Positions 1,568 to 64,000 of a stretch of 64,000 bases of DNA are shown piece after piece (position 1 is the first letter of the stretch; each line of letters opens with the position of its first letter). The DNA is from Amoebophrya sp. A120 (Eukaryota; Protista; Dinoflagellata), in assembly GCA_905178155.1 (NCBI GenBank), contig CAJINV010000006.1:3692169-3756168 (forward strand), given 5' to 3'. The position numbers and the translations under genes are program-made. The notes under the pieces were generated by a model. The model was not told where the DNA came from. It saw nothing but the letters and a program-made list of their open reading frames with translations, and made no database searches.

Positions 1568-1577
1568 TCCGCTACCA
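1568..1577 (-). promoter_or_regulatory. Primer-binding-site-like sequence TGGTAGCGGA
   Basis: Directly 3' of the LTR's terminal CA. It is complementary to a tRNA 3' end ...UCCGCUACCA, which resembles initiator tRNA-Met. Confidence 0.5.
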
Positions 1578-2063: not shown

Positions 2064-5000
2064 AGACAAGCGGTTTGCCAAATGCTGGGCCAGACGATGC
2101 CGTTCAACTGTTCTCGTTTCGCCTTGTCGCTGAACACAATTTTGCCCAGTTTCCGGCGGTCAATTTGGCGCCCAGCGAGCTCTGGGTAATACTTGTGCAG
2201 CTCCCGGACTTGCGGTTGCTCTTGTTGCGCCGAAGAAGCAGATGTTGATAGTGCACCACTTATTGTAGTTGCAAGGGTAATTATCCTTTCTTCCTCCTCG
2301 CTGGTCATCGCCACGACGTTCACCTGCCCGAAAGTCTCGATGATCTGCTTGTAACACTCTGACTCTGGGTCTTCGTACGCCTCCCGCCCAATCTTGTCGC
2401 AATCGACGTAAATGAAGCCGTATTTTTCCTGCAGCATTTTTCCGATCGTGGTTTTGCCCGACCCAGAAGACCCACAAAGCCCAATCACGTAGACGGGGAG
2501 TGGTTTCGCCATTTTCAAACTCTGCGATGCTTTCTTCGTATCCTGTGCAAAAGCATCGCACTCGTACTAATCGCAGTCATGCAAGACAAATTTCATTTTC
2601 TAGCTAAATCAGCGTGACAAAATCTTTTTGTCATGCTGAGGAAATTTGTGTTGCAATACTACGAGTACGATTATACTTTTGCAGTTCATACTTCGACAGG
2701 AGGTGCAACTTCGGGTCCAATGCGGGACGAGCGGGAGGTCGTGTACTAGTTCTTGGAGGTGGAACTACTACGGAGGTAGAAGATGATGTCGTCTCCAAGT
2801 TGCTCGCGCCGTAGTTCTTGATGTAGTTATCTTCCACTTTCAGCATCCGCTTCGTGACCTGGTAAATCGTCTGCGCGAGCAGTTTTTCACACTGTCCGTA
2901 CAGGGAGAATCGTTTCTCGTAAAGCTTCTGTATCAACAAATTTCGTTCCTGTAGTAGCTGCTCTCCGGCACTCAGGTTGTTTGCGGTGGTCAACATCTGA
3001 GCACCACTGCTCGGTACTAGCATAGCAGGAACAAGGTCGAAGCAATCCCCGGGAAACGTGATGTGGGGCAGAAACGCCCCCAGTTTCCGGAAACGCTGCG
3101 TGGAGGAAGAGGTCTTGGCTTCCAGAAAGTCCGCAACCGTCTGCTGAGGGTTCATCTTCTGCCTAGAAGTAGGAGCCGAGGAAGATGAGACATGGCCGCT
3201 TGTGGCAAATAAAGCAGACACAACTGCTCCTGCTGCCGAGGAGGATGTCCCGGCTCCACCTCCTTGCGAGCTGGCTACACAGGTTTCCGGCTGCACGAGA
3301 ACGCCGTCGTTGATTACGTGGGTCGCTAAGTTTTTCAAGTACGGTATGGAGTTCTCAAACGTTACATTCTCAACTGCTACACGAATTTGTCATGGAAAAG
3401 CACCGTAAGCCGGCAGATGATCGAGCTGCTTCGCATGACAAATTTCGGGAGGGCTAGACAGCATCGAAATCTGCGCCAAACTTGTAATGCAAAAGGCGCA
3501 ATCTTCCTTCTTTCACTTATGCCAGTCTTGCATTGCAAATTCATGTAACAGTTGAAAGTGTAACACTTGAGAACTCCATATACGGCATTGCGCGGTTGTA
3601 ACCCATCTGATTCCGCTCCGCGTACCTCTGACTCTCGGCTTCGCGATATGCATTGCAAATATGTCTGGGTCTGGAAGAGTGCGCGATTTGTCCCGCAGCT
3701 TTTCCAAATGACCCATGAGGTCTGCAATGCAGGACCTGGCGTGACAGATTCTGTGCGAAGATCTCTCTCATGCCTATCCTGCATGAGAAACTCCCCCCCG
3801 ACTTGGTCAAAACTGGAGGACTTTTGGCAATCATGCAACACAGATTTTTGCATGCTTGAGATTTAGCATGACAAGTTGCATTCTTCCAGACCCGGACATT
3901 TTTACATTTGATACGCGACACCGGTTCACAAAATCCGCACCCGACTTCGTTTCTGCGGAAACCACAATCATTTCCAGCTGCGGGTCCGTGCCCGCCGGGC
4001 CCGCGGCGTCTTGCAGAAAAGTGACGAACACCTTCGGGAGCTTCGCCTTCGGCCGCTCCCGGGGGAACTGCCGTTGTTGGGCGGACACCGAATTCGAGGG
4101 CTGGTAGATCGGCATCAGCCGCATCTGCTCTTTCAGGAACAGTTCCACCTGCTCACCCCGTTTCTGCTCCAACGCGATCAAGTCGCGGAATTTCTTCTTT
4201 TCTAACAAAAGGGAGTCGTCGCCCGAGATCCCCTATCCTGTGCAAAAGTATCGCACTCGTATTGCAGTCATGCATTACAAATCCCTTTGCTAAGATAAAT
4301 CCGCATTACAAATTTTATTTCTCATGCTGAGGAAATTTGTAATGCTTTTATACGACCGAGTACGACACTTTTGCAATTCATATCCCCACGACGAGCCGCT
4401 GCTTGGTCAGGAAAAGAGCCTCGGTGAGTAGTAACTTGTGCCCATTGTGCAGTGGAACGTCGAACGTGCCCCCACAACAGACATGGCCATACGGCATGTC
4501 AATCGTCGTTGCAGGTGCTGTACTAGTTGAAGGCGCGGCCGTAAGGTTGTCGTCATCTGCAAAAGAGCCTGCGATTCTTTGGTTAGGATTTCTACTCGAG
4601 GAAGGAGGCGTTCTTGCGCTAGTAGTCGGGTTCTTCCCCCCGTGCGGATGCGGAACAACGTCACGATTTTGATTTTCGTCAAAAACACTATTTTCCAACC
4701 CAATTATTCTGCTACTCGCGCTGGTATTCAGTTGTGACGTGGGCAGTCGGCCTGCCGCGAGGTCGCGATTGGTTCTGCCGTCCGTGTCGAATTCGTATAT
4801 TTCCACTTTGCTCGGTTGAAACCGGAAACCGGACCCACGGGCGTCGAGCACCGAGGTGGAGCCGAGAAGAAGCTCCTCCTCGATGATGGACTGTCGCTGG
4901 TCGTTGTAAAACGAAGAAGAACTACTGCTCGACGTCAGACCCGAGGATTGCAAACCACCGCTACAACTCTGCGGGTGGTTGTGCGTCGACGAAGCAGGTC

Positions 5001-8000
5001 CTCCTCCTGCGGACGCCGACGCACTAGTGGCTGCTGTTCCGGCGGACGACGATAAGGGAACTCCAGTGGACATCGATGTTAAAACACTTGTTCCAGCTGC
5101 GGGGGCACTTCTTTCGTCTGCTCGTGAGGTGGACGAGGGTTTGTTCTTCAAAAAGTCCTTTTGCTCTTCGTCAAATTTTTCGTAGAAATTTAGTCCGCAG
5201 TCGAACTCTTTCGCGATCTTTTCACAGAGGAACTGCAACTTCTCTTCGTTACTCGCGAAATTGTTCTGCAGGCAGTTGGTCGGTGAGGTAAGACCATTTG
5301 TTCGTCGACGTCCAGCAGTGGGGGTAGAAGAAGGCGTGTCCGGCAGCTTGATATTCGCTGTCCCTTTGGAGGAAGTTGCATTATCCGGCTTCGTTAGCAT
5401 ATCCAAGAAAAAAAGACTGTAGGCGTAACTTTCTTCGAGGAACAGCATGACAAATCCGTCTGGCATGAGAGCAAAAACCTGTTATGCGCAGATAGCACGC
5501 GAATGTGAAAACGCCACTGAATCGTGGGCCCTACAATGCATGCCCAGCATGACAGACGCAATCATCTTGCAAGTTGGGCATCACAAAGTTACGCTAACAA
5601 AGTTTTTTTCTTCGATACAGCAACAGTGACTGGTCGCAAACGATCGCGGAAATCAGCTTGTAATTTTCCTCGGTCGGTTTCCCGGCCAGTTCGCGCAGCT
5701 GTTTTTTGTCTTCCTCTTTGTCCTTCAAAGCGACGTGCTTGCTGGAGGTCTGCTGCGCGGAAGTTGTAGTACTGGAAGCATTGACCGGGTGGCCGTTGTT
5801 TCGCTTCCTGTGCTTGGAACTACTACCTCCCTCCTCCTCTGGGGGGAAGCGGAGCATGAGCTGCTTCCAGAAGTTTCCGAACTGCAAAAACACCTTTTCC
5901 TCCTTGTGAATACTGGCATTCGCGGAGGTGGACCCGTTTACCACGTTGGTAGCGGGGTCGTTCATATCGGACGCAGTTGCGGTGTTGGTCCCATTCTTGC
6001 CAAAGCTGATCCTTGCGTAGAGCAAACGGACGAAGTTCAGCATTTTCTTGCACCCGTACTGCTTGCAATCCGCCGTGAGCAAGGACGCCGCGTTGAGGAC
6101 AATCACGTAAATCGAGGTTTGCCGGACTAGCACCGAGAAGAGCAAGTTGTTAAAAATCTTCTCCGCGCTCGCGATCGGCTGGCGCGCGTCTAGCAGGATC
6201 AAGGTCGCATTCTCCTTCTGGTGCTGCGCCGGATCTTTGCTCGCGGACAGCAACCCCCCTTGCAAAGCGAGAACCTTCCGGAAAATGAGGCTGTATTCGT
6301 GGTCTTCGTCCGCCTCATCGCCGTCATAGTAGTAGCTGAAAGTAGAAGATAAATGCCGCGGCGGCTTGTTGTTATTTTGCCTGTCATCTTTTTTACCACC
6401 TTTATCACTATCTTTCCTTGTTGTTCCTGATGCAGCTGTTCTTCTGATGGTTTTCGTCGCTTTATTGCCTACACCTCCGCCCTATCCTGTGCAAAAGTAT
6501 CGCACTCGTATAAATGCATTAAAAATTGCCTCAGCATGAGAAATAAAATGAGTCATGCATTAAATGCATGACTGCAATTACTACGACTACGATACTTTTG
6601 CACAGGATACGCGCGCCCCGGTCGCCGTAGTCGCGCTTCTGTTGATTCCTTGAAAACAGTCAAAATTTTTCTGCAAGCTGGCGGTAATCATGGACATGGT
6701 AACCATGGATGGTAGATTATTTGTACTACTTCCGGCGAATGGATTTTTAGCTGCACCATTTATTTGCATGTCATCTGCATTATGTTGATTTTTCATTATC
6801 ATAGTGCTGATCCCATCCCCCGCCTTCACACCGCCCACTTTTTGTAGCTGTTGTTCCAGTGACCATTTTTTCTTCCGCTGCAAAGCCGCAAACTCGCGCG
6901 CCGCGGCCAGGTGCAGCTCCCGGGGCGAAATGTCGAAAGGGATTGTGCTGGATCCTTGTGACTCTGACTGGTCGGTCAGAGTAGACTTAGGGGTTTTTGC
7001 GGCGTCATCTGCATCGTGGTCTACGTCTTCGCAGTTGTCAATTACATCATCATCGTCGTGGTCCTGGGGGTTCATATTTTTCGTATTATATCCAAAGTCC
7101 AGAAGAAATGGGTCATCATGTTCGACCACATGATCTTCTTTTTTATGCGGCGAGGAAGCCCCCGACTTTTTCCTTCCTGCTGCAAGGGGCCGCTTCTGCG
7201 TCGTGGTGTTTTTGTTTTTTTCCACCCCTGCATGAGCCGCGCCAGTGGTGTGTTGAACAAGTGTAGAAATAGCACCAGAACTCGTGGCGGGCTGCAGCTT
7301 CGACACAACAACTCCCATAGAGTTCTGCCTAGAAGTGAATCCACCCGCCGACGTCGGTGGTGCTACCGTACTTGCGATTGTGGTTCGCAACGCAAGTACT
7401 TCATTTTTACCCAATGGTGGGTCATCAAACGCAGTAGAGGAAGCGGCCGACAGTGGCGCTTTTCTCGTGCTAGGCTGGCGAGTGGAACAAGTAGATTTAT
7501 TGCATGGTGTTCGAACGACGTCGAATTGGTTCGTTGGTGTAGAAGTTACTGTGCTGTTCAGCATGATCTTCCCATTCACATTCTTGTGCTGGTCGTTCAA
7601 TTTCACCTCCTTGCTCTTTTTCCTCTTCTTCTTGATTTCTCCCTTACTATTTGTATTTGCTCCTCCCCGTAGTTCGCTTGTACTTGTAGAAGTTGTGCCC
7701 TGTAGTTTTTGCTGCTCATCATGCTGGAGGAGCTTGTTCTGCTTCCCTGCCGTGGTCGTGCTGCTCTTCGTGGTTTTAATATTGTTTTTACCAACAGCTG
7801 CCACGGGGTTCTGCTCGGAGGTGTAGCTATTTTCGTCCTCATCTTCGCCACAGCTGTCCGACTGCCGGTCACGCGTTATGACAGTGCACAACTCCCCCCC
7901 TCATTTGTATAGCATGAACGGCAATACAAACATCAGCAAGAATGCCGGTTTTGCATGACAAACTTACACTGGAGTCGTGTAGTGCTATTTCAGCTACCAG

Positions 8001-8168
8001 AAGTTGTCATGCAAACAGTGCCATGAAGCAGGGTCTGGATTCGGGGTTTTGCATGACAAATGAGGGGGAGGGGGAGGTGAAGTTGTGCACTTTCATACGC
8101 GTGCCAAAGCAACGGCTCTCGCCATCCACTGCCCCGTTGCCGCAACATCTACTATCGCTGTTCCCCAT
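2064..8168 (-). CDS. COASY: Bifunctional CoA synthase (PPAT + dephospho-CoA kinase) with long N-terminal extension; 3' end lies beyond the LTR insertion
   Basis: PPAT motifs CGGTFDVPLHNGHKLLL (HxGH), LVVGISGD and AGPAGTDPQLEMIVVSAET. DPCK P-loop VIGLCGSSGSGKTT..YVDCDKIG and IDRRKLGKIVFS..LNGIVWP. Exons are separated by elements at 2539, 3345, 3647, 4234, 5400, 6483 and 7877; the frame was checked at 4234, 6483 and 7877. Confidence 0.88.
3345..3580. mobile_element. Introner family D (TIR TAT..TCTCAAACGTTACA), representative copy
   Basis: TSD TACGG. Others: 12177-12443, about 18945-19181 (truncated), 26275-26542, 47170-47417 and 57565-57796. Confidence 0.9.
3647..3913. mobile_element. Introner family C (TIR TATCAAATG/TATGCATTG..TGTCTGGGTCTGGAAG), representative copy
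   Basis: TSD CGCGA. Others: 1937-2063 (interrupted), 18252, about 19230, 21062 (truncated), 23118, 27420, 30046, 41232, 46435, 48140, 48445, 50269, 55885, 58049 and 63906. Confidence 0.95.
7877..8097. mobile_element. Introner family E (TIR TATGACAGTGCACAACTCCCC..CTCATTTG), representative copy
   Basis: TSD CGCGT. Others: 18547-18782, 45824-46037, 46112-46368, 61291-61485 and 62852-63065. Confidence 0.92.
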
Positions 8169-10023: not shown

Positions 10024-13000
10024 TTACAGATCCGGAGAAGACTCCATCACAGACTGCGTACTAGCGGGAAGAACTGCAGGTCCACCACGACCAGCTCCCC
10101 CAGGTACGACGGCAACTGCCTCAGTACTAGTACCAACTTGCTGGCTGTTCTGCATCTGTTGTGCCACTGTTCCTTGCTGTCCAGTGCCTACAACAACTCC
10201 TGCAGTTGGTAGCTGCGCCTGCTGCTGCTGTTGAGCGGCCAACTGCATCGGTTGCGAGAGCTGCTGCAAGACAGCTTGCTGCTGCGCGGGCTGCAGGATT
10301 TGTGCGGATCCACCTGGAGCAGTTGCCATTGAAACCACCGCCCCGCCATAATTCCCATTGCGGGGGCCACCACCTGCGCCAACGGGCAGTGAAGGGGCGG
10401 GGGCCTGCTGCCCGTAGTTACTACTCCTGTAATTCCAATTCCCGACTCCAAAACTACCGAAAGAACCGCCACCGCCCTCGAACCCCTTCGGCGTCATGAC
10501 ACAGAGCAGCAACGCACACATTGCGATGAAGAGGAGAATGAGCAGAATCAGCAAGTTTTTGTTGTTCTGCAGTGCAAAACTTGTCGCGTCGTACTAGCAT
10601 AAATCGCAACACAAATTGACTTAGCATCACAAATGAAATTTGTAGTGCGGATTTACCTAACTAACTCGATTTGTAATGCATAACTGCGATTAATACTACG
10701 AGTACGATACTTTTGCACAGGATAGTTCTTCACGAGGTACCCGAGGAAACTGTTTGATTCCCCGGTAGAGTCCTGAATTAGCAGGTCCGACTCCCTTGTC
10801 TCCGTTAACTTCATGTAGGCCTGCGACATTTCCGTGTTAGACCAGTCCGCGCTGGTAGAGACGTCAATCACCTTATCCTTTGCAAAACCAGAACCACGAC
10901 CACCACCAGGATCCTCGCCAGCTGTAATGCAAAATGCGCAAAGGCAAAATTGTCATGAATGTGGTTTTATTTCGCATCACAAATTATAGCGATCGGGACA
11001 AGGTCGTCGTGGTCGTGAAAGATTTTTACGATTTCATACAGCTCTTGGTGTATCCCGACCAGATCTTCCTGCTCCACCCTGGTCAGTTGCTCCTCTGTTT
11101 TTGAAATGACTTGCAAAAGTCTATCGCACTAGTAGAAATCGCATGACAAATTTCCTGACCATGAGAAGTAAAGTTTGTAATGCAGATTTGCCTTGGAAAA
11201 GAGATTTGTAGTGCATGACTGCAATTTATTACTACGAGTACGATACTTTGCAGTTCATATTTGACACGGCAATGTCGAAGCTGTCACTGTCCAGCGTCGG
11301 GGTCATTTGCAGAGTCTTGCACTGTCCCGCGAGCGACTCCACTCGGTCAATCACGTCCCGCTGCAGTTTCCGCTATTGTGTCGAAAAACGTCCAAACCCC
11401 ATAGTCAAGATGGAAAACCTGCTACACAAATCCCTAAGCTTTGGCTGTCGCGCATGACAACTTTGGGCTCGTCGCAATAGTGGCCTTTAGCTAGTGCATC
11501 AGCATCACAGATCCAGTTTGTCATGCTGAATCGAGCATGACAAGTCCCAATAAATGACCACTAGAAAACGCCTCTGATGTGTCCTCTCCGCATGAGAAAC
11601 ATTTTAAGCATGCAGATTTGCAAAACAACTCTGGGGTTGGGACGTTTTTACACAGGATATCCGCAGCCAGGAATTTATCGCCTCCGATTTTCGCCTGCAG
11701 CACTTATCCTGTGCAACAGTATCGTATTCGTAGTGCAGTCATGCATTACAAATCTTGTTCTTAAAGAAAATCCGCATTACAAATTTTATTTCTCATGCTG
11801 AGGAAATTTGTAATGCATTTATACGAGTACGATACTTTTGCAGTTCATAGCACTGCAAGTAGGACAACAACTCCTCCTCCCACAAATTTAAATCCTGCTT
11901 GGTGAAAGGCTTCCCGGACAGCGCATCCTCGGCGTTGGTGCCGGACAGATATGCAGTGCAAAAGCATCGCACTCGTATTGCAATCATGCATTACAAATCT
12001 TTTTCTTAAGGTAAAGCAGCATTACAAATTTTATTTCTCATCCTGAGGAAATTTGTTCAATTTGTAATGCATTTATACGAGTCGTGCGGTACTTTTGCAC
12101 TGCATAACAGAGATTCGGGAGCCAATCTGGAACACTCCTGCTGGTCGATACTGGCGACTCCGGATAGCACGTCGTATATAACCTGCTCAGCTGTTACATC
12201 AATCTCAAGCGTTACAATAGAATCTGGAATTTGTGTTGCAAGAAGTGCACGATCTAGCCTACTCTCATAGGATTGCGCATGACAAGTTCTGGAGTCCCGA
12301 TCCGCACTACAATGATCTGGCGAAATTTGTATTGCAGAAAGTCGAACGCTGTCCGAGTCTGTGTCTGTCATGCTCATCATGCATTACAAAACACAGTAGA
12401 TTCTGTTGTAAGGTTTGAGATTGTAACGTTTGAGCAGGTCATATCGTACTTCATTTTCGTCTGGATTTGTGACTGCGGATGAAGATGATGCTGGTTGTGG
12501 TGGTGATGGTGATGTTCTTCGGATTTCATGATCTCTTTGTTGTGTACTAGTTGTTGACCTTGCAGATGCGAAGCAGTTGAGCTGGCGTGTAGTTCCAGTT
12601 CCTGTAGCTGCTTCTCCTTTTCCGCTAGCCCCAGTTGCAGTAGTGAAAACAATGAGGTACTAGACGACGCACTCGAGTTTTTACCATCTTGCTCGACCTG
12701 CAGATGATCGCTATTGAACTCGTCCTCCGGCCCTGCTTCTTTGAAGACGCCTTTAGCAGGTTGTAGTACAGGTGACCACGTCGAGATCAAATCCAGATCT
12801 AGCAGCGAAGAAGGCGAGTTTTCACTTCTAGATGAAAGAGCCCGCGGCCGCGATGAATACTTGTTGTAGTCCACCTTCCCGTTCTCCAGAAACACCACCG
12901 CGCCCGCGCCCAGCTGCAGCCTTGTCCCGGCCGGAAGGTGAATCAAAGCGCGATATTGCAAGGAAAAATGCCCCCTCCCCATAATATTGGAAGCGCGTGA

Positions 13001-17753: not shown

Positions 17754-17793
<40 letters not shown>

Positions 17794-20700
17794 GATGAAA
17801 GTCAGCTCCTTCTCCTTCACCATCCGTAGGTTGTCGTTGTTCCGGCGAGGGTGGTGGCCGTACTATGACCGGCGCGGCCGGCGGCTCATCGTCCGAAGTT
17901 GTCTTCATCCCGTGTTCGGTTTGAACACCGGCGGGGGCAGTGGAAATAGTCCCAGTTTCATTCAACATCTTCCTCGTCGTCCCATGATTGTTCACAGGAT
18001 CTTGTTCTAATAATTCCTCGTCCCATAATTCAACACTCGGACTACGTATGAACTGCAAAAGTATCGCACTCGTATAAATGCATTACAAATTTCCTCAGCA
18101 TGAGAAATAAAATTTGTAATGCGAATTTACCTTACGAAAATAATTTGTAATGCAAGACTTGCATTTATAGGAGTACGATACTTTTGCACAGGATACTACG
18201 ACCGTGGACTTCTACGTCGTCCCACGATCGTAGTCGTCCACCTGAAGATGTTCTCAAATGCAAAAGTGTCTGGGTCTGGAAGATTGGTAGGTTTGTCATG
18301 CAGGTTTCCCATGACCCACGCGGTCTGTGCCATGCACGGCCTAGCATGACAGGTTCTGTGAGATCTCTATCATGCCGTTCTTGCATGAGAAATTGCCTCT
18401 AAACTTGTTCAAAAGTGGGCCTCTTTTGGTAATCATGCAACACAAATTTTTCCACAATCCAGATGTAGCATGAGAAGTTACACTCTTCCAGACCCAGACA
18501 TATTTGCAATGCATAGGTGCCGACCGACGAGCAGCGCCACGCGCGATATGAAAGTGCACAAATCCAGCCAATCTCCCTCATTTGTAATGCAAAATCCCCA
18601 ATGATCCAGCTGCTGCCTCATAGCACTGTTTGCATGACAAATCCTGGAGGCCCAAACAGTACTTCTACAGTGGGGTCGTCACAAATTTGTCATGCGTACC
18701 TCGTCTACGTGCGCTTGTGTTTGTATTGCTCTGTTCATGCTCTAGTACAAATGAGGGGGAGGGGGAGTTGTGCACTGTCATATGCGAGAAGTGTGAGATA
18801 GGAGGAACGGCGCGGCCGCACGCCCGGACTGGTACTTCTGCTAGAAGTTCTTGCGCTTCTTCTGTGAAGTAGAGGACGAGAGATAAGAAGATTTTTAACA
18901 GCGGGAGGACGAGGATCAACACCCAATTTGATCCTTCCAGGAGGTGTTACAATCTCAAACGTTACAATAGAATCTGGAATTTGTGTTGCAAGAAGTGCAT
19001 TATCTAGCTTACTCCCATAGGATTGCGCATGACAAGTTCTGGAGTCCCAATCCGCACCACAATCTGGCGAAATTTGTATTGCAGAAAGTGGAATGCTGTC
19101 CGAGTCTGTCATGCTCATCATGCAATACAAAACCCAGATTCTATTGTAACGTTTGAGATTGTAACGTTTGAGCGGGTCATATTTTCCGTTGCTCCAGGGG
19201 GGTAGGGAAACGTTACGCAAGTCCCCGCTTCATCAACTGCAAATGTCGTCTGGGTCTGGAAGAGTCATGCTGTTTTTGCATGACGCGCAAGGTCTGGCAT
19301 GGCAGCTCTAGCATCACAGGTTTCGAGAAGCTGCCGCAATGCCGAATCCGCATGACAAATCCCCCATTTTGGTGACAAAAAGTGGGCAGCTTTTGCTACC
19401 TATCTATGCATGAGAGATTTTTCTGTGTTCTGAAATGCGCATCGCAAGTTTGTACTCTTCCAGACGACCCAGACATATTTGCAATCCATACCTCTTGCGT
19501 GGATATGTTGAGGTAGTTTTCGAGAAAAGTTGTTTGGGCGTCTTTATTGCTCGTTGGTAGAACAAAAAACTCCGGTAGCAATTCCATCAAAACCGCGGAG
19601 CCGTCTTGCGTCGCGCGGTAAGTGGTTTCCATGGAGTGAAATAGCCGGTTCCAGGAGTCAAAGGAGCCTGAGCATGCACTCTGGCAGTTCCCTGACAAGG
19701 AAGTACAGAACGTAAGCGGGCGTGGAGTAGTGGGTGCCTGTGACAATTTGTGTTTGTTTGTCCTGTTTTTTTGCTGGAGGTGGTGATGATTATAAGGACT
19801 ATGCATGCCAAACAAAGAAACTGCCTCATCGGAGGTGAAACAGGATGACAACATGAAACAAGATCCTTCTTATACCGTACAAAAACTTCTGTCCCGCTGG
19901 CATTTCGCGCATCCGTTCCCGAAATTGCCTCAACTATCGAAAGAAAAAACTGCTTCACTGTAAACTTGTGATGCATAAAATGGAACAAAAACGCGTTTGT
20001 CTTGCTACGCATGCAAGACATTGGCAGATTTGCCATGACCGGAATATTTGTGATGCGCAACCCCATGACAGGCATTTTCAGTCGTGTTTGAGAACTTGTA
20101 ATGCTGTAAACAGGGTCAGCAGATCGATTTGTAATGCGGCTTTCCTTGCTAACTTGCACTACAACCTTACGGACTGCAAGAACTTGTCACGCGTGACTCC
20201 CAAAACTCCTAGCTTTGTGTTGCAAAGTCCCCATCTTGACTCTGGGGTGGGGACGTTTTTGCTTAGGATAAGAAGTTCTTGCACTTCTTCTGTGAGCAGC
20301 ACGAGAACTAAGAAGATTTTTAACAGCGGGAGGACGAGGATCAACACAAATTAAATTTGTAATGCGGATTTGCCTTTAAAAAAAAGATTTGTAATGCATA
20401 GAAGCAATTAGTACGAGTACGATACTTTTGCACAGGATAGAAACAGCTGGTCTGCCATGCTGCGCTCCTGGTAAGGCCTCTCATCAATCATATGCAAGGA
20501 AAAACAGAGTGTTACAGTTACACACTTGCACGTGAATTCAGCATCACAAATTTTCTTCGCATGACGGAACTTGTAATGCAGAAATCATAAGGCAAAACAC
20601 ACACGAAACGAGACTCGCAAGCCTTTTGCGCATGACAGAGGTCGTCTGCCTTGCATGTCTTGCAACACTGTGTGTAAATATTGTAACACTTTTTATTTTG

Positions 20701-50182: not shown

Positions 50183-53100
50183 TCAACGCGCCAACACCGT
50201 TTCCAGACTCTGACTCGCGAAATGCGCGACATCCGGATCGGAGTCCGATTTTGCCAGGTTTTCCAGCGTATCAAATGTAAAAATGTCTGGGTCTGGAAAC
50301 TTCTGATGCTGTGTGGCGTTACATGAGAAGGCCACAATTGCTGGCTCAGCATGACAAGTTTCTGAGCTTCTAGGTGTTGCCTATTCTGCATGACAAACTA
50401 CGTTTCTGCATGACACAAAAGTGGGGCTCTTTGGTAATGTGCATGACAGATTTAAGAGTCATGCCAGACAAGCATGACAAACTTGCATTCTTCCAGACGC
50501 AGACATTTTTACATTTGATACAGCGTTTCCACGGCCCGCCGCTGCAGAAAATCACTCTCCATTGCTAGCGCTTGGAGTAACTGCGGTAAGGCGCTTGTCC
50601 AAGGAAAGAGATCCTGCGTCAGTGTACTTCTACTTCTCAAGTCAAATCTTGTTTTCATGATTAGCAACACAAATTTAAATCGCATGTCAGAGAAAAGGAA
50701 AACCGATGCGCCATCATATACGTGAAGTTATTCATGTAAACAACTGCCTCTTCTCTAAATGGAGTTTCAGCATGTTGACAGGCGCCTCTATCTTCCATGT
50801 ACTTTTGCAGCACATAGTAGTGAGTTACACTGACACAGCTTTGTTATTATCTTGGATAACTCTAGCGACGTTGAAACGTACGTTCGGAACGGGATCCTCG
50901 GCGAGGGACAGAATTTTGTCGGCGATGCGGAACTGGAATGTAAATGGTGAGCAATTGTTACTACATCCATAAAAAAGGCATCTGTCATGCGGAAACCGCA
51001 TCGGTGTAATTGTTTGTCATGCGATGCACGCATCAAAACCAGTACCTGCACTTCCTCCACGTCTTTCTCGCCGTAATTCGCGGGATCGATCTGAATCATC
51101 TTTGCCATCGCATTATGCATTTTTGCAAATTATGTGTCATCTCAGTCTGGATTTGTTATTGTAGATCCAAACGACGCAGATGCAGAAGATTTGTAATGCT
51201 TGGAGAGGAGTGCACGTCGACCAGGGGGGCACTTTGTCATGTATTAGTGTTGTTTATTGGACCTCCAATAACCTACCACCTCGAAAACCTCCTTGCCATT
51301 TCCTCGTGTCGTATCAAAGAGACCACTCTGGCATGTTCATGTTGCAAGTATCAGCATACAAGTCGCGGCAACAAATGATCAGCTGCATGTTTAATATTCG
51401 TAGTCCAGACCCAGATTTTTCATAATTCACAATTGATACGCTTGTATCGCCGTCACGCGAAGTATGCAACACAAATTTACCACATCAGAGTAGACATCTC
51501 CGCGTACGTACATCAAAGTGTGATCAACAGAGATAATAATTTCATCGAAAACTAACAGCTAGCAATGTCAGAAGAGGCAAGGGCGGCTCTCATGATGCTG
51601 TTCTGTATTTTATAACAACTAACGCACTACGAGAACAAGAGCCCGGTGGTGTGTTGAACAGGCTTGGTCAGCGTGAGCGTCGTGGTGCTAGTGCGGTAAA
51701 TTTCCAGCGTGGATACGAAGCAGGTAGTTTTCGTGCGAGATCAGGTCCTTCTTATGAATCGCAAAAGTAAATCGTACTCGTGCAAATGCATTACAAATTT
51801 CCGCAGCATTTCAGTTCATTATCATTTCATTGAGAAATGAAAATTTCCTCAGCATGAGAAATGAAATTTGTAATGCGGGCTTGCCTGACGAAAAGGATTT
51901 GTAGTGCATGACTGCAATTACTACGAGTGCGATACTTTTGCACAGGATACTTCTCGATCTCCGGCAACACGTTCTCCTTGGTCCAGGTGGTACCCAGAAT
52001 GTTGCCGAGCTTCTTTAGTTATGAATCGCAAAAATATCGTACTACGTATGAATTGCATTACAAATTTCCTTAGCATTACAAGTTTGAATTTGTAATGCGG
52101 ATATGCCTTAACAGAAAGACTTGTAATGCGTAAATGCAATCACTACGAGTACGATACTTTTGCACAGGATATTAGTGAGTCGCAGGCTGCTTCTCGCACG
52201 AGGTAGACCGGGTCGCCCAGCCAGGTCTTTGTGGTACTCGAGGAGGCGGCAGTGTTGGGGTTTGGTGGCATCGTGTTGTTGGACGTTGTCATGCCTTGCT
52301 GGCTCATCATCGTCGTGCTAGTATTCACATCGCCCGATGAAGTGGCTGCTGTTGATCCTGCTTGGGTACTAGCAGCTATCAAACAAAAAAGTGTTAACGT
52401 TAACGGTTTTCACAGATGGCAGCTATGCATTACAAATTGTGCCTTCCATGCATGTTGCGCAATACAAATTTGGGCACCTTTTCTGATGCGTTACTGCATC
52501 ACAAATTCCATTAACGTTAACACTTTTTCTTGTGATAGCAGCTGTTCCTGCCGCAACGGCCTGCGCGCTGTTTTTCAGTGCGTACCAAATGTGCTTATGC
52601 AATGTAAATTTCCCGTACATGTACAAAATGTATGACAAATTTCGCTAACTTGCAGTGTGCAACTTGTCATGCTAGACTAGGACTGAAGGCAAGTGTTTTG
52701 TCATGCAGAGACTGCATTTGTACGTGTTGTACAGGAAATTTACTGTGGGTAATGCTCGGTAAAAACATCCTCCCCCAGCACCTTGGCCAGAATATCCACA
52801 GAAAAAGATCCATCTTCCCCATGATCCGTATTTTGCATCACAAACGCAGACCTTACTGCATGTTTTGCATGAGAAATTGCATGTGGACAGATGTGTCTTT
52901 TTTTGTGGACACAGAACGGGGCAGCACTCCAAGACCGCGAGCCGCACCCGCCACTGCTTGTCGCACGACAGATATCCCACGAAAAAACTGCTTCACTGTG
53001 AACTTGTGATGCAGAGAATGGAGCACAGAACGATTTGTCTTGCTACACCTGCAAGACATTGGATTTTTTAGCGTTTTTTCCCTTGGGAAGCGCGCATGGC

Positions 53101-56100
53101 AAATTTTCTGTGTCATGTGTAACAAACTTGTGATGCAGATCTTGCAAAGCCATCACAGTGAAACAGTTTTTTCGTGGGATAACAGAGCTTGTAGTGCTGG
53201 CAGTAAGGATTCGTTCAGGAGGGACACTCGGATTACCTTGGCCAGGTGCGGGAGATGCTGGATCAGCTGTAGCCGCACATCCGACGACTCGTCGCGAATC
53301 AGCTCCAGGATGATTTTCGTGAGAATGGTGACCGTGACGTGTTTCCCGACGTAGGGAGAGAGTTTTAGCACCGCCTTCGAAAGTTCCTGTCGCACCTGTT
53401 GACTCGGATCCTTGGTCAGTTTCTGCAGGTGCTGTTGGATCAGCGTCGTCAACTGCGACGCTTGGGGAAACTGGTTATCGGAACCACCTGGTATGCAATG
53501 CGCAAACGCATCGCGCGAGCAACTTCTAGATTCGTATAACAACAATTTGAGTTCTGGAGCAACATCATATAATCTCCAAACCGTAGATGAAGGATGTTGT
53601 GTCGCGCAGATGAATCAACCACAGACAGCAAAACAGATCTACTGCCTTCATGCACCGGGTAGCTTTTGCTATTTTTAGTCCGAGCACGACGATGCTTTTG
53701 CACTGCCTACCTGCGGCCAATTCGCTGGTGTCCAGGGAGATGGGAGAAGGTGTGATCTCCCCATTATTCTGCTTATTTGCCGCATCGCTGTCAGCGAGAA
53801 CCTGGTTTTGATTTTTATACTCCCCTTCGTTCCTGACATTTTTTCTTCTGGCGTGGTACTAGCTGTAATAAATGGTCGCCGTTCATTCACAACCGGGGGC
53901 TTGGTGGGTTAGGATTTGGACACAACTACAACTTGGTATGAATCAATAAAACAGAAAGTAGTGGCAAATGAAAATGTAAAAAAAATCTTCATCTTGAACT
54001 ACATTACAACGTATAGTGTGTACCTTCGCGACGCTTGGCAATTTGAAGACGGCCAAGCTCCTGACTTCCGGCTCGTTGTCTGTGAGTAGTTTCTCTAAAA
54101 TCTTGCCGACATAGTCTGTTTATGCATTGCAAGAGTACAACCGCACCACTACGTAGGAATAATTGCACCTCCACAAACTTGAATTTATTTTTACTCAGTG
54201 TAAAAAATACACTCAGGTTTGTCATGCTGATTGGATTCAGCTCGATAAAGGTGCGTAGATTTGTCATGCGTATCTGCAATCCGTACGACTACGAATGCCG
54301 TACGACTACGAATGCCGTACGACTACGAAGGCCTCACGTACCCGCACAAAGGCAGCGGAGTTTGTCTACCAGCCTGCTCCGTCGGCCCTGGGCGAGGAAA
54401 TACGAAAGCAGGGTCGAACAAGTGTGTTCCACGTAAGGAACCGGCTCGACACATGGAGCCGATCATAAAAACACACACACGCCCAACTCGCTTCGGCAGG
54501 CGGGCGCGCGATAGGCCTTGTTCCCTAGCAGCTTCCGTCCTTGCACAGAGCGGGCCACCCGCTTGCCTGGCCTAGAGCACCAACGTGGCGGGTGGCAGGT
54601 GTCTCGGTCGTGGGGGCTCTAGAGCCTGTGGGGCGCCCCCTACCAAACGGCTAGCAGGCTATGCGGATCCCGTATCTGGTAGCGACCCAAGTTGTGCGAT
54701 AGCGGGCTAATAGCAGTTTGTGTCTGCCTTCGCTACAATATGACCAACTCGGCTATGTGTCGTGTGACCTACTTGCAGTAGGTCGCTTTGCGAAGGTACG
54801 TAACATTTTTGAAAGTTTTATTGGATTTAATCGTTGGGCGCGTTATATTTGTCATGCGTATCTGCAATCCGTACGACTACGAATGCCGTGCGGAGCCAGG
54901 AATGGGGCGTAGAAATGCCCTACCATCCTGAACACGAAGTCTCCGATCTGTATTGCACAAAAGCAATGCTGCAATCGAGTTTCTTTTTCGGCGGCGGCTT
55001 CGAATTTCTACGCCATCGCCTTGGCTCCTGCAGGAGGCGGCGTAGAAATTCCATACCGCCATGAGAGGGAAGTCTCCGACCTGTGATGCACAAAGGCAAC
55101 TGTGACTTTGAGACCGGACTGCTTTTCCCGGGGTGGTTTCGAATTGTCCGCCCCGTTGCCGAAGGAACACCCTGCGCCCGGCTGTAGCGCTTCGCGCACT
55201 AAGCCACTATGCGCGCGCCTGATGCGAGGCGAGGCCGAGGGGCGGACACTGTCCGCACTGATGCCGAACACCCTTCCCCCACTACCGCTTTGCGAACTAA
55301 GCCACTGCGCGCGCGCCTGATGTGAGGCGAGGGGCGGACTCTGTCCGCCGCGATGCCGAGCAATGTTCCTCCACTCGCGCCACTAGGGATGCGCACAAGG
55401 CCCCAGCGTGGGGACCCTGTCCCCACGCGTGGACCTTGTTTGTCATGCATATTTTCCATGACCAATGATGTCTGTGATGCATGCCGTAGCATCACAGATT
55501 TTTCATGCGTATCTGCAATTCGTACGACTACGAATGCCGTACCGTACTTTTGCATGTGATACCGCCTCCAGTGCGTTCGAGGCTGTTCGATCCTGTTGGT
55601 CCTCTTCAAGCTGCAGGTCGTTGTCTTTATGCAATACAAATTTCCCGTACATGTACAAGGTGCATCACAAACTTCACCGAACTTGGAATGTAACGCCTGT
55701 CATGCTAAACTAGGATCGGAGCCAAGTTTTGTCATGCAGAAACCGCATTGGTACGTCGTCGTGTACGGGAAATTTACTGTGGATAGTCTTCAATTTCCTT
55801 CAACAAACCTGGGACGAAGAGCTTCAGCAAAATTTCCGGGAGAAAGTCCGCCATCATGTACCGCACTCGCCAGGACTTGTCCCCTATGCATTGCAAATGT
55901 GTCTGGGTCTGGAATGGTGCAACTTGTAATGCGCATTTTTCAACACACAAAAAATCTCTTATGCCTAGACAGCAAAACAGGCTGCTCACTTTGTCACCGG
56001 ATTAGGTATCGAGGCACCTGCTCAAAACCTGTAATGCTGGGCCTTGCATGCCAGACCTCCTTGGTTATGGAAAAACAGCATGACAAAAATCTGCATCCTT

Positions 56101-58381
56101 CCTGACCCAGACATGTTTGCACTGCATATCCGCGACGGACTTGAGGAGGACCTGCTTATCCTTGCAGTAGATCGCGTTTTGTATTGCCAAAACCCGCACA
56201 GAGTCCTGCTCGTCCTCGGCTAGAAGCTGCATCAGCTGATTCAATTGCTCATGAATCGCCGGCGGAGTGGTGCTTATCCCAGCGCCGGTGTTGATGCTAT
56301 CGCTTTGTCCACCTCTGGACATCCCTTGTGAAGTCAGCAGAACGTCGGCGACCTGGTTGGTTTACTGGAATTTGAAAATTTGTCATGCACAGGACTTGTT
56401 CGCACACAGAATACAGGTTCTTTTGTTCATCTCATGCAGATCTGATATGCTTTATGGATTCGTGACACAAGGAACCCGCCCCGGTCACTTACCTATGTAA
56501 GTAAAATTTTTTATGATAATCATAATTTCTTATTCTTATACTGTGACAAACTGCGCCGCGGCAGCTCTCCTGACCATGGGAGTGTCATCGCGGCATAGCC
56601 TGGCGTACGCCGCCAGGTATTCAAACTCAGGCGGATCGGGTGGCTGCAGCTGCTCCCCAGCACCGTTACTATCCACTCCTCCACTGGCCGCGCTAGACGC
56701 CGTCGGGCCGAAATTTTGGTTCCACCACCGACTTATGGGTATAATCGTCGGTAGCAACGCTAGCGCGCTCATTCTGCTCGTAAACCAGTCGTGCTGGGCC
56801 AAGCGGTGGGTCAGGGACGCGAACTCCTCAAATAGCGAGGTAGACGACGTTTGATGCTGAGATCCTGGGTCCATCGCTGCCTGCTGCTTGTAAAACTCGG
56901 GAATCAAGTTCATGATTTTTTGCAAACCCGCCGTGGCCTGAAAATAGATTGCATTTGATTTTCATTTGTATTTCATGCTTATGGGGTGGGGTCACATAAT
57001 TCATTCCCACTCGTTCGTCACAAGAAAAACACACAAGAAGTTGTTGTTGACAACTCTATGGTCTCTCTACTGATCTGACAACAAACATTTTATACCTTCC
57101 CCCTCACTATTGCTTCTTCCTTGTTGGCCAATTCTTCCAAGACTGGTATCAAGCAGTATGGGAGTGTCAGGATCGAAATTGACAAAATTGAAATGATCTG
57201 TAATGCATATTATGCATTACAGATCATTTCAATTTTCTTGCTTTTTGCGTAGCATTTTATGCCATAAAATGCTACGCAAAAAGCGACTCTATTGCAGAGG
57301 ATGCAAGGAAGGCGGATTGTAGTCCTGGTAAGGCTTAGGTGTTGGGCTGCTGACTAGCATGACAGAAGGCAGCTCTTTTTCCCTAAACCGCATGACAGAT
57401 TCGCTTCCAGGACGGGGAGAATTTGCCATGCGCCGACTACAAACTGTGGCTCTAAGGGGCATCGATTTTGTGCATCACAAGTTTTTCGATTTTGTCGATT
57501 TCGATTCTGACACTTCCATAAGCAGCTCCCATACTGTATCCCCCCACAGAATTCCAACACAAAATATCACGTTCTCAAACTTTACATTCACAACTGTTAC
57601 ACGAATTAGTAAAAATGCAAGAACAGCAACAGGCAAAGGGGCAAGCTTGCTGCTTTCGCATCACAGATTTACATGCTGTTTACCCCTTCGGAGATTTGTC
57701 ATGCGAAGCAGCTTGGACGTCTGGTGGCGTAAGGTAGTTCTGCATGACAAATTCATGTATACAATTGAGAATGTAACCACGTTTGAGAACGCCATACAAA
57801 ACGGCTATCTGAGACCTGGTCCGCCAGTTCCACGAGCAATTCCTCTTCATCGTCAGCAGCCACTTCCGCGGTAAGAAACGGAATCAGTTCTTCTCGTACC
57901 CGCTCTGGGCCCAGAGCAAGGGAAATGGTCGCCAGGTTCTCGATCGCATTTTTTCGCTGAAACAAGTGGTCCGATCGGAGCTCGTCGATCAGGATAGCAA
58001 TGGGGTACAGATCGTCCATAGTCAGGTTTTTCGTCTTCACAGGGTGAATATCAAATGCAAAAATGTCTGGGTCTGGAACAGTGGAACTTGTGATGCGTGT
58101 CTTGCATTCCTGGAAAATGAAAATCTGTGTTGCATGAGCAGCAAAAGAGGAGCTTGTTTTGTCGTGCAAAAACGCAGTTTGTGATGCGTGGTAGGCATCA
58201 GCAGGCGTCTCCAAAACTTGTCATGCCTGGCTGCCATTGCAAGCGTTTCAATCATGCTCAATTCAGCATCACAGATTTCCAGACCCAGACATATTTGCAG
58301 TGCATAGTGAAACTGCCCAGCCGCAAACTCCCCCGAGGCGGCGGAGGAGGACGAGCTAGACGGGTGGTGACCTGATACCAT
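50183..58381 (-). CDS. PPP2R1A: Protein phosphatase 2A scaffold A subunit (PR65, HEAT repeats)
   Basis: DDLYPIAILIDELRS..ALGPERVREELIPFL, DWFTSRMSA, LCRDDTPMVRRAAA, EDEQDSVRVLA, DKSWRVRYM, TDNEPEVR, RDESSDVRL, WLGDPVYLVREAA, DPVPNVRFNVA and SDPDVAHFASQSL*. Confidence 0.96.
52377..52537. mobile_element. Introner family K (TAT..AAAAGTGTTAACG), representative copy
   Basis: TSD GCAGC. Also 63119-63293; related copies at 29475-29688 and its duplicate 20491-20704. Confidence 0.85.
52973..53181. mobile_element. Introner family G (TIR TATCCCACGAAAAAACTGYTTCACTG), representative copy
   Basis: TSD ACAGA. Also 23774-23985 (TSD CTCGC) and a half copy starting at about 19935. Confidence 0.9.
54259..55540. 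repeat. Three copies of a 43-bp sequence ATTTGTCATGCGTATCTGCAATCCGTACGACTACGAATGCCGT with 0.5-0.6 kb spacers
   Basis: Copies at 54259-54301 (with extra tandem 17-mers to 54329), 54847-54889 and 55498-55540 (2 mismatches). All lie inside the element 54121-55561 in the PP2A gene. Confidence 0.92.
57184..57284. repeat. Two adjacent perfect inverted repeats (26-bp and 22-bp arms, 1-nt loops)
   Basis: AAAATTGAAATGATCTGTAATGCATA-T-TATGCATTACAGATCATTTCAATTTT and GCTTTTTGCGTAGCATTTTATG-C-CATAAAATGCTACGCAAAAAGC. Confidence 0.95.
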
Positions 58382-60051
58382 GGTCGTCCTGGTCGTGTCG
58401 CTTGCGCTAGCAAGATGAATTATGGAAAAGGAACAGCGCGTCGTCCTTTTCGCGAAAAAATCTTCCTCCTGTGGTACCGTGGAATAAACGTATTCCACGT
58501 GGTCTTCACTTAAGTCGTTCTTGTTCCGGCTGCATCTTCCTGATGCGCGTCGTCATAATTGTGATGTGCCATTCAACTGCTTGCGGAGCTGCACATGATT
58601 CACGACGGCGTCATCTTCGCATCATCGTGGTCTTTTGGTTCTAAATAAAAACCTTTCCACGCCACTATATGTTCTTGCTCTTCTTCTTTATTTTTCTGCC
58701 GTCCAATAAATACAGACTCAGTTCCTTTTTTGCATCTCACGAAGAGACAAAGACAGTTGACTTAAGAGACGACAATAGCTGTAATAAAAGAACGGGAAGA
58801 GGAAGATGCGACCTTGTGATCATCGCACCTCTTGATAGGGCCGTTGGCGTTGGTGAAGTCGTTTACTTACTTGCCATCGTCTACTTGTACTTCTGTAATC
58901 TCCTGATTCATTTTTTGAAGCCAGAGCCGCACCACAACTATCGGTACCACTTTCATGGACAAATGTTACACTTACAAATTGCACGACATTCTGGCACCAA
59001 CTCCGAAAGGAGGACGAAAATAATCGGCCCGCAGAGAGATGAGGATGACCACCCCGAGCAGTGACAGACACTAGAGCCACCAAGAACAAACGCAAGACTA
59101 GAAAAGAGTTGAAGTTGTTTTTTGATGTGACGACCAAAAACATTTCGTCCTCGTCGAAATTTATTTTTGGTACAACATCGTACAATATTCAAACTGCTGT
59201 TTTTTCTTTTTTGGTACAGGTACTACTTTCAGGGCGAATTTCGTTCGATTTTTCTTCTGCTTGAGAGGTTGGTACGCAGAAGCACTTCGAGCGTATATAA
59301 CTCAAGTAGGTACATATAAAGTTCTTTTTCAATCACCGGCCTAGTACTACTACTAGTTCCGGTGTACGGACAAATTTTTTTAGGTCGTTTTGTTCGTAAG
59401 TTATTTTTCGGGTTCGGGTCCTTGTCCTAGACGCGGAGGTGAAACTAGAACTACAGAAGTAAGGCGCACCTGATTTGATGAGTAGCAGAATCTTCTGTAC
59501 TCAAATTTCATCAAACTGCAGGATATCTTCTGGGTCGTTTGTCTCTACAACTGTCGAGAAGAGGAGGCACTAGATATGATGTAAAGACCACACTGAGCTT
59601 ATTTTTGGTGGTGAAACTCGATAGGTTTAGGTGGTGGAAAGAGGACATACAGATAGTATTTTCCGTATTAATCCGTAAATTTTGCATTTTATTTTTTTTC
59701 GTCTCAATAATACAACTTGACTTCACAGTGCGGTCCTCCTCGTCCTGCTGAGCACTTATCCTGAGTAAAAACGTACCCACGCCAGAGTTGTAATGCAAAT
59801 CTGCATGCTGAAAATGTTTCTCATGCGGAGCTCCATGAGAAGCATTTTCTAGTCGTGTTTTGCAATTTGTCATGCTCCAATCAGCATGGTATTCTAGATC
59901 TGTGATGCTGCTGAGCTAGCTGAAACAGCACTATACTACGAATCCAAATTTGTCATGCAAAAAAGCCAAAACTCGTGGATTTGTCTAGCCGATTCCCCAT
60001 CTTGACTCTGGTGTGGGTACGTTTTTACTCAGGATAGCACTGACTCTTTGT

Positions 60052-62669: not shown

Positions 62670-64000
62670 ATCAAGGCTTTGATACGAGTGCAACGACTAG
62701 ACTACTGACTCTGCTCCCCACTAGAAGTTGTCGTTGTTTCCATCTTCAGCCGTGGTCTCTTCACACCATTTCCTCGCCTCCGCTGGTGGAGAATCCTTGG
62801 TCTTCTTCCGTGTCGCTGGCAACAAGCGCGCTGGGTCCCCGCCTGCCAGCTTATGATAAGGCACAACCCCCCCTCCCCCTCATTCGTATAGCATGAACGG
62901 CAGTAGAAGCTTCAGAAAGAGTGCCGGTTTTGCATGACAAATTTGTCCAGGAGTGCAGTTTGGGCTTCCGGAGTTTGTCATGCAAGCAGTGCCAAGAGGC
63001 AAAGCCTGGATTTGGTATTTTGCATGACAAATGAGGGGGACGAGGGGAAGTTGTCCACTGTCATACAGCAACGTAATTGTTCAGAATGTGGGAGTCGTCG
63101 TAAAACTGCATGATGTTCTATGACGGGAGAAAGTGTTACCGTTAACGGAATCTAGCATGCAGAAATGCATGAGAAACGGCGGCCAAGCGACCAAATTTGT
63201 ATTGCATAGCACGCACGATAGCAAAAATGTGTCATGCATCACTGCGATGCCTCAAGAACAAAACCGCTAGCGTTAACACTTTTTTGCTTGATATGTTCGA
63301 CTTCTTCTGCGCAGGAGTCGCACCCGTTGCATCCCCAGCAGTGGTCCCAGCTTGTCCTACCGATTTCTTGCCCGCCATTGCGTTCGTGGCCCTGCTAGTA
63401 CTAGAGGCAGCAGCCGGCGCAAAACCCTGCAGCACGGCCGCGCTCTCACCACCTCCTGCGCCAGGGGGCGCTGCGTTGGCGGCGGAAGCCCGAAGGGCGA
63501 CGGTCTGCTGCTTGGTGGTGCGGGTGCCGGGCTTATCAAAATGAAAAATCCCCCCTCCCCATATCGAAACGAAGTCTGTGATGCTGGATTTGCGTACACA
63601 AATCAGATTTGTTTTGCTGAAGAAGACTGCAGGCCCGCGCCAAGCCTAAGTAGAGCGGTTTTGGTCTAGGCGCTCAGCATGGGAAACGTCTGCGCTGGAG
63701 GCCTAACAGCATCACAAACCGCCTGCATAATGTATGCGGCGGTTGTCTGTGGAGTTGCCTTTTTGCAAGACAGAGATGATTTGTGACCCCAAAAAATCAG
63801 CATTGCAAATTCTCTGCGACGTACTACTTTTTCGATATGGGGACGTCGGGGGATTTTTCCTCACAATAGGGTTCCTGCACGTTCGACTTGTAGATCGCAG
63901 CCAGTTATCAAATGTAAAAATGTCTGGGGCTGGAAGATATTGAAACTTGTCATGCACGTTTTGCCTGGGCCACGATGTCTGTGATGCATGCCCTAGCATC
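62670..64000 (-). CDS. 3' part of an unidentified low-complexity gene
   Basis: Ala/Pro/Thr-rich exon-like segments between elements at 62852, 63119, 63534 and 63906. Stop position is approximate. Confidence 0.45.

Follow-up and report, generated by a model that had tools for sequence, protein, structure and literature searches.

A 12-base motif repeated inside twelve introner families of Amoebophrya sp. A120, a putative site for a double-stranded-DNA-binding protein

Introners of the dinoflagellate Amoebophrya sp. A120, transposon-like elements that are also introns, carry an internal motif that crosses 12 families, occurs on both strands and recurs at discrete spacings. The motif came to light in a 64,000-nucleotide stretch of contig CAJINV010000006.1 (positions 3,692,169 to 3,756,168; the window means this whole stretch). 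The text of Farhat et al. 2021 (PMC7789003) puts the A120 introners at ∼30,000, with no transposase found, and describes inverted repeats that start with TAT and comprise seven variable bases and an A-run, together with short direct repeats; it also gives more than 60% of A120 introns as spliced without GT-AG or detectable U1. Our analyses show that the cross-family motif is a genuine feature of these known elements. On balance, we regard it as the putative binding site of one protein that would read double-stranded DNA and aid assembly of the transposition complex.

The motif and the elements that carry it

Elements were called with a procedure that ignores the motif and requires TAT...ATA ends, a 5-bp direct repeat outside them and terminal complementarity (score of at least 15). 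The caller returned 70 elements in the window and none in two shuffles. A metagenome scan for a same-strand pair of sites gave 132 loci, 80 of them with one contig prefix. This group alone shows terminal-repeat patterns, and its 76 non-overlapping loci (349 kb) were kept; 4 overlapping loci were dropped, as were the 52 from other records, which have no terminal-repeat pattern. Of these 52, the two inspected, L026 and L117, are unrelated tandem repeats. Viral contigs gave three matches to the pair pattern, all without terminal repeats, and none in the terminal-repeat search. Together, the window and the 76 loci yielded 388 elements (103 kb of shuffled sequence gave 4 false calls), with 11 families of at least 5 members (5 to 139 each), or 12 after one split. 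Window elements match locus elements at 74–96%, near full length for 61 of the 70. Two perfect 32-bp pairs without a family match, at L022:952-995 and L024:2263-2306, lie in loci selected by the search pattern.

The element ends read T/A/T at frequencies of 0.98–0.99, followed by variable positions 4–10 and by A at 11–14 (0.64–0.90). The TAT start, the A-run at 11–14 and the 5-bp duplication are common to all families, and the duplication, which the caller demands and which falls in the 3–5 nt range of the direct repeats of A120-type introners, is perfect in 278 of 398 elements. The inner terminal repeats are family-specific, with end positions 15–30 differing by family. A short repeated or palindromic unit, different in each family, lies at end positions 15–35 and is a candidate contact for a family-specific transposase. 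Window members of the families, to which no strand is assigned, include the following:

4234 to 4382: family 0 element; sites near 4272(−), 4303(−), 4317(+) and 4335(+); same-strand pair 31 bp apart; duplication TCCCC
50269 to 50520: family 1 element; 5 sites; complementary DNA (cDNA)-like contigs skip the element plus one duplication (50263 to 50521)
58049 to 58306: family 1 element; contig pieces join 58307 to 58043, so that the element and one duplication are gone
52973 to 53181: family 2 element; 4 sites; skipped in cDNA-like contigs
59757 to 60036: family 3 element; every site has the form GCAU.ACAAA once transcribed in the inferred sense; an RNA contig ends at the element's left boundary
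7877 to 8097: family 4 element, from the motif-blind caller and family clustering
57157 to 57520: family 5 element, on the same basis
25844 to 26168: family 6 element, on the same basis
52793 to 52911: family 7 element; a single pair of sites on one strand, 32 bp from each other and transcribed as UUUGU.AUGC; skipped in cDNA-like contigs
3345 to 3580: family 8 element; sites at 3385, 3433, 3480 and 3530; the sole family without a 30–33 bp pair
52377 to 52537: family 9 element; skipped in cDNA-like contigs
12177 to 12443: family 10 element, from the motif-blind caller and family clustering
55628 to 55785: family 100 element; the motif itself at positions 4–15 of one end; skipped in cDNA-like contigs
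41023 to 41173: family 100 element in alpha-tubulin; the reading INYQPPT, whose residues we take to be conserved, permits a cut only 0–2 nt before TAT

The original prediction, made by a model from the letters of the window, held that at least 11 otherwise unrelated families carry the motif in multiple copies and both orientations, and that it is scarce elsewhere. The first part is borne out by 12 families, all with the motif and with window members, and the motif stands at all six positions that the prediction quoted, each within 0–3 nt. The exact string AAATTTGTVATGC has 40 matches in the window versus 0.01 expected (13-mer count), and ATTTGTVATGC at no more than one mismatch has 261 versus 4.76 expected. 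The information spans only ∼12 bases: a matrix trained on the elements gives the consensus AATTTGTVATGC, with the core TGT.ATGC. The 70 motif-blind elements contain 203 of the 261 near matches (13.3 per kb inside versus 1.2 per kb outside), and 66 of the 70 hold at least one. When density was recounted with all element-homologous sequence masked and a matrix score of at least 12, we found 284 matches in 17,751 bp of elements versus 19 in the 46,249 bp outside, with 1.6 in shuffles; that is, 16.0 per kb within elements and 0.41 per kb outside. At least two sites are present in 69 of 71 window elements, and 59 of the 71 have sites on both strands. An Rfam search gave no matches.

The second part, scarcity elsewhere, held for coding DNA and not throughout. 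The open reading frame (ORF) of a long interspersed nuclear element (LINE) has no site, and 4,152 exon bases with RNA coverage hold just 3 weak matches; overall, the comparison with exons, the LINE and non-element DNA shows a strong excess inside elements. Four sites, however, lie in the leader of a likely long terminal repeat (LTR) retrotransposon, and some GT-AG introns carry sites (two of four RNA-verified and one of two presumed tubulin introns). The features concerned are these:

35834 to 39733, minus strand: intact LINE ORF (RVT_1) of 1300 codons; negative control, 0 sites and no element inside
1213 to 1577, minus strand: AT-rich leader, likely of an LTR retrotransposon; 4 same-strand sites at 1235, 1291, 1432 and 1520
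1578 to 1701, minus strand: LTR-like segment TGTGAA...TTCACA of 124 bp, then the primer-site-like TGGTAGCGGA (1577-1568), a TGG sequence
1 to 1212, minus strand: Gag-like ORF that runs off the window; related to P0002 of Amoebophrya AT5.2 (40% over residues 73–228)

The leader's 4 sites compare with 0.035 expected and are 56–141 bp apart, without the 32-bp spacing described below. P0002, the only full-length relative of the Gag-like ORF that was found, continues into what is presumably a retroviral-type protease motif; P0003 is an unrelated repeat protein. The ORF matched no Pfam family and no longer homologue, and its Atlas resemblance to Retrotrans_gag (0.90; 99 shared features) is a weak lead. 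A second CA-TGG junction on the minus strand of L073:1030-1200 is followed by AT-rich DNA with one strong same-strand site, and no Gag ORF lies behind that leader.

Two further repeats were seen in the window. A 905-bp segment is duplicated at 99.9% identity (20345-21249 and 29329-30233), with several elements in it, and may represent a recent duplication or an assembly artefact. An AT-led sequence of 23 bp or more occurs four times (18893, 20318, 21254 and 22496), borders truncated elements and the 905-bp duplicate, and is absent from the 76 loci.

Spacing, strand and conservation of the sites

The sites occupy family-fixed places, and elements of the 12 families average 2–5 copies. A same-strand pair 30–33 bp apart, an interval chosen after inspection of the data, is present in 11 of the 12 family consensuses, compared to a null mean of 2.3 and a maximum of 8 in 20,000 trials. 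Because the loci had been chosen by the pair pattern, the spacing was retested on the window alone, where 51 of 71 elements have such a pair, and on the 250 locus elements without the search pattern, where 168 do. The tiling every 20–40 bp that the original prediction described does not hold: the median adjacent spacing is 32, but 45% of 203 spacings fall in 20–40 (quartiles 31–51), and its example at 3385, 3434 and 3482 has separations of 48–49 bp. The true pattern is one of discrete spacings.

The sites are also placed with respect to the element ends. For 10 families, the site closest to the end, in the inward reading TTTGT, has its start at 29–31, 37–41 or 49–52 bp. The 11 distances from these 10 families share a phase at 10.5 bp (R = 0.81, p = 0.0006; look-elsewhere p = 0.003). 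Within family 1, the first site lies at 30 (15 ends) or at 37–40 (91 ends), with few between, and a family 1 end in a loose end of run X9, from another study, has its site at position 37.

Strand is used evenly. Transcript-sense sites number 588 versus 541 opposite in 285 stranded elements, and element orientation is unbiased in 11 of 12 families. The variable base shows no covariation between opposite-strand copies (0.353 observed versus 0.365 expected, 2,139 cells), indicating that motif-to-motif RNA pairing is not selected. The geometry and strand data thus agree better with recognition on double-stranded DNA than with a word or a stem in RNA.

Mean consensus frequency is 0.918 for the motif core (406 columns), 0.773 for the other interior columns (1,288) and 0.89 for the terminal repeats. 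Between families the spacers are near random (left 9 spacer bases, 0.277 versus 0.275 expected). Excess conservation, fixed spacing and the lack of strand bias support the notion of one cis-site read in either orientation. The check that the original prediction had proposed, on spacing and on conservation of position within families, likewise gave discrete spacings, family-fixed sites and a core at the frequency above.

The array erodes once inserted. Relative motif content is 0.97, 0.90 and 0.76 in elements with 0, 1 and 2 duplication mismatches (n = 278, 99 and 21). Among the 57 youngest copies, private changes affect 0.44% of core positions (7/1,587) versus 0.40% of other columns (4/1,002). 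Single sites therefore have no strong protection once inserted; protection of a weak or redundant kind is possible.

Removal from RNA and the reader of the motif

We examined removal in three contig sets of one sample, in which the RNA class is a guessed label. Each of the three runs gave 14 joints in a minus-strand HEAT-repeat gene, which we take to resemble the PP2A A subunit, and two further joints bring the total to 16. Every called element is removed together with exactly one duplication, whatever its orientation or flanking bases. The contigs that skip elements are spliced cDNA, since the same contigs also skip GT-AG introns. Of 16 verified introns, 12 are unreadable as GT-AG; all 12 have at least one site and 11 at least two, and the four GT-AG introns hold 2, 0, 0 and 1. 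One spliced family 7 element carries sites of the UUUGU strand only. The RNA contig that reaches the family 3 element, whose sites are all of the other strand, ends where the element begins. Reads from raw RNA runs X9 and X10 fell on element ends only (19 and 125). Several verified introns bear on the cut or on the motif:

54116 to 55562, minus strand: intron of 1446 nt bounded by TAT and ATA; 9 sites; allows a cut only 0 or 1 nt before TAT
50592 to 50860, minus strand: spliced element in decay, with 1 site; limits the cut to 1 or 2 nt before TAT
53488 to 53710, minus strand: relic of an element that retains its terminal repeats; reads as GT-AG if the cut falls 1 nt before the end triplet; no site scoring at least 9
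50933 to 51045, minus strand: GT-AG intron without a called terminal repeat; full same-strand pair 32 bp apart (50979, 51011)
56353 to 56541, minus strand: GT-AG intron with one top-scoring site (56377)

Mismatched duplications restrict the cut to {1,2}, {1–5}, {0,1} and {0–3} nt before TAT, tubulin permits {0–2}, and the relics readable as GT-AG use 1. The sole register common to these four mismatch-informative joints, the GT-AG relics and tubulin would place the intron from 1 nt before TAT, with U at +2, to 4 nt after ATA, a register that rests on few joints. The distribution of duplication mismatches by position (16, 21, 15, 16 and 27) was uninformative on this point. The 1446-nt intron (element 54121-55561) contains three copies of a 43–49 bp motif-bearing repeat and two further internal repeats; none of its ORFs exceeds 124 codons. 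Neighboring GT-AG introns begin GTAT, GTAC or GTAG, as if they were old elements.

The reading that we favor, by a modest measure of confidence, is that one DNA-binding protein would bind the array in helical phase with the element ends and assist a Ginger-like, integrase-derived transposase in forming its synaptic complex. Copies with the array retained would transpose more, so that the array would be conserved along master lineages and erode after insertion. The paired ends would be the main determinant of splicing, with the cuts 1 nt before TAT and 4 nt after ATA. Because end positions 15–30 differ by family and the motif also stands in the LTR leader, a cofactor, from the host or shared, is a likelier reader than a transposase specific to one family. 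Indeed, the presence of the motif in that leader and in the GT-AG intron at 50933-51045 suggests that the reader is probably not specific to one transposon family.

Several observations weigh against this reading. An 11-bp period fits the distances to the ends almost as well as 10.5 bp (R = 0.79), so that phase alone cannot separate DNA from duplex RNA. Families 0 and 100, of opposite polarity, fall off the 30/40/50-bp ladder, and since families share blocks, the spacing and phase tests overcount independent cases. Family 7 stands in one orientation in 10 of 11 copies, with UUUGU.AUGC in the transcript, a bias that would fail correction for 12 families (window copies 24327-24435 and 52793-52911; loci L010, L011, L028, L034, L077, L078, L095 and L122). 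In RNA folds, taken without a shuffle control, 39% of motif bases pair with another motif copy. The conservation of the core is partly circular, as its sites were called on the consensus. With age, core mismatch rises by 1.9 points (0.4–3.5) versus 4.0 (1.0–7.8) for other conserved columns and 1.6–2.1 for the terminal repeats; the first two intervals overlap, older subfamilies inflate the figure for the other columns and the caller favors intact ends, but a decay about half that of the other columns makes some selection after insertion possible. GT-AG introns without called ends keep strong sites, one of them a full 32-bp pair. Finally, no transposase or integrase was found among the 54 ORFs of at least 330 residues from 413 kb.

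A narrower form of the favored reading, included within it and carrying rather less than half of its weight, is that the transposase itself binds the motif, which would repeat the terminal site in the interior as the inner direct repeats of Sleeping Beauty do. End positions 4–15 are motif-like in families 0, 1, 7 and 100 (mean scores of −3.9, −6.1, −9.2 and +1.9, compared to −25 ± 9 for random sequence), and all families have TAT, the A-run at 11–14 and the 5-bp duplication. However, the other 8 families are weak at that offset (−14 to −27), the inner terminal repeats are family-specific, and the same sites occur in the LTR-retrotransposon leader.

The most serious competitor, which we nevertheless consider unlikely, is a splicing mark: a host protein on DNA or pre-mRNA would recruit a U1-less spliceosome to the ends, and elements without sites would be lethal. 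The presence of at least one site in all 12 verified non-GT-AG introns is consistent with such a mark, as is the relic at 53488-53710, which became GT-AG and retains its ends but has no sites left. In the flanks of 285 elements neither G nor AG is favored, so that the element itself must define the cut, and U1 was not detected in A25 or A120 according to the text of PMC7789003. AG at the 3′ cut is also associated with low motif content (3/19 versus 12/358; p = 0.03, one of 13 tests), and old GT-AG introns retain strong sites. On the other side, sites decay with age, and elements with 0–1 site and intact ends occur within open frames. The UUUGU reading is missing in 24 of 348 stranded elements and the other reading in 33, so that neither RNA strand is required, and the four leader sites are not in a called intron. 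Faster motif loss in GT-bearing elements, the relaxation expected with G at −1, appeared at 7/83 versus 4/202 (p = 0.016) and failed to replicate in a larger set (6/105 versus 9/272; p = 0.21), where a control position did better. The original prediction had offered a transposase site, or a mark for splicing or DNA excision; the transposase or cofactor branch fits best, and a splicing mark is less probable.

The two functions could also be joined. One host protein, bound in helical phase inside both ends of every element, might license both transposition and splicing by marking the DNA during transcription and directing a U1-less spliceosome to the cuts 1 nt before TAT and 4 nt after ATA, whatever the orientation and flanks, a speculative combination that we hold to be doubtful. 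If it were true, intron identity would be read from double-stranded DNA, and any mobile element with the array would become a harmless intron.

Much less probable is an RNA packaging signal, by which excised intron RNA would be bound by the retrotransposon Gag, reverse transcribed and integrated with 5-bp duplications. Packaging signals lie between the primer site and the Gag ORF, where the leader has its four same-strand sites, and L073 has a second primer-site-like AT-rich stretch with one same-strand site. On the other side stand the helical spacing and phase of the element sites, leader sites that are 56–141 bp apart instead of 31–33, the equal use of both strands, the lack of a Gag ORF behind the L073 leader, and inferred ends of the spliced intron that differ from the element ends.

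The view that the motif is a now functionless leftover, inherited from a single ancestral element, is largely refuted, and we give it very little credence. Since masked BLAST between elements was underpowered (8/9,591 within family 0), relatedness was assessed by alignment z-scores. Masking of the motif and the ends leaves 10 of 66 consensus pairs that align at z > 3, contrary to the supposition that the families are otherwise unrelated, and 6 of 66 remain when half-sites are masked as well. The shared interior blocks connect families 3, 4, 5, 6 and 10, and also 0, 9 and 100; within-family controls reach z > 3 in 30–100% of trials, so that further hidden ancestry is possible. These blocks and the end signature common to all families accord with descent from one element, but conservation of the core equals that of the ends whereas the spacers of different families are close to random, spacing is held to 30–33 bp, and the first sites of family 1 fall at 30 or 37–40 with few between. 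Thus, common ancestry can account for the presence of the motif and not for its outlasting the spacers. The original prediction had named simple common ancestry without excess conservation as its refutation; ancestry is partly shared, yet motif conservation is in excess.

A mark for programmed DNA excision, as in the internal eliminated sequences of ciliates, is the least credible reading: the geometry would suit a DNA-binding protein and the removal of element plus one duplication is exact, but run X1 contigs at depths of 24–34 are unbroken through elements (e.g., 50492-51802 and 53155-54288), and the element-skipping contig also skips GT-AG introns and is spliced cDNA. DNA contigs thus retain elements that cDNA-like contigs skip, which does not support the excision mark of the original prediction; among the X1 joints listed, DNA excision is not the main fate of the elements, with the proviso that contigs would miss a rare or stage-limited form.

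Comparison with known systems

A 12-bp site with strict geometry provides a bait for finding the protein involved and a possible handle on introner splicing, and the inferred register, with U at +2, predicts directly what lariat sequencing should show. With a role in transposition only, the site would be a counterpart, common to many families, of known internal sites; with a role in splicing as well, it would amount to a DNA-read definition of introns, for which we know of no precedent.

The elements studied here share with the published A120 introners the end signature, the division into many families, removal from RNA and noncanonical splice sites, as far as the text of PMC7789003 describes them. 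That text deals with terminal and direct repeats only, with no internal motif, spacing rule or single register. Among the A120 families of Gozashti et al. 2025 (PMC12130899), the text lists one with integrase homology as 'Ginger, 5-bp TSD (target-site duplication), TA/TA termini'. This family, 38, has the 5-bp duplication and TA termini of all 12 families here, whereas it is ∼810 bp long with homology to Copia integrase and the present elements are non-coding. Two motif strings had no match in 12 of the 14 supplementary files of that paper. In the literature searched, which did not extend to figures and subscription papers, we found no description of an internal motif in Amoebophrya introners. 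The motif is therefore probably undescribed, and would be a variant of the internal protein sites of cut-and-paste transposons.

Two other intron systems offer partial parallels in the published texts. Nonconventional introns of Euglena (PMC12501133) are likewise non-GT-AG and are defined by sequence at fixed distances from the boundaries, but their signal is a complementary CAG/CTG-type pair beside the boundaries, unlike the internal, repeated and non-covarying motif here. Fritillaria introns (PMC11282704, PMC13326754) are also transposon-born and spliced by an altered spliceosome; there, U1 is kept and splice sites are biased to AG-AC/AT, whereas here the flanks show no bias and U at +2 is the sole constant base in the inferred register.

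A further parallel is with cut-and-paste transposons. In Sleeping Beauty, inner binding sites and their spacing matter, and its arrangement of inverted and direct repeats (IR/DR), together with the host cofactor HMGB1, and the subterminal repeats of Tol2 both represent repeated inner sites whose sequence and spacing matter for the synaptic complex (PMC8151067, as far as its text goes). Conserved copies at fixed distances from the ends and from one another, as in an array of the Sleeping Beauty type, were found here too. In Sleeping Beauty and Tol2 the sites are each those of a single transposon family and have been demonstrated experimentally, while those described here are known from sequence. 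Unlike them, one site here crosses 12 families and fills the whole element. The array is thus unusual in that it crosses families and sits in elements that are also rule-breaking introns.

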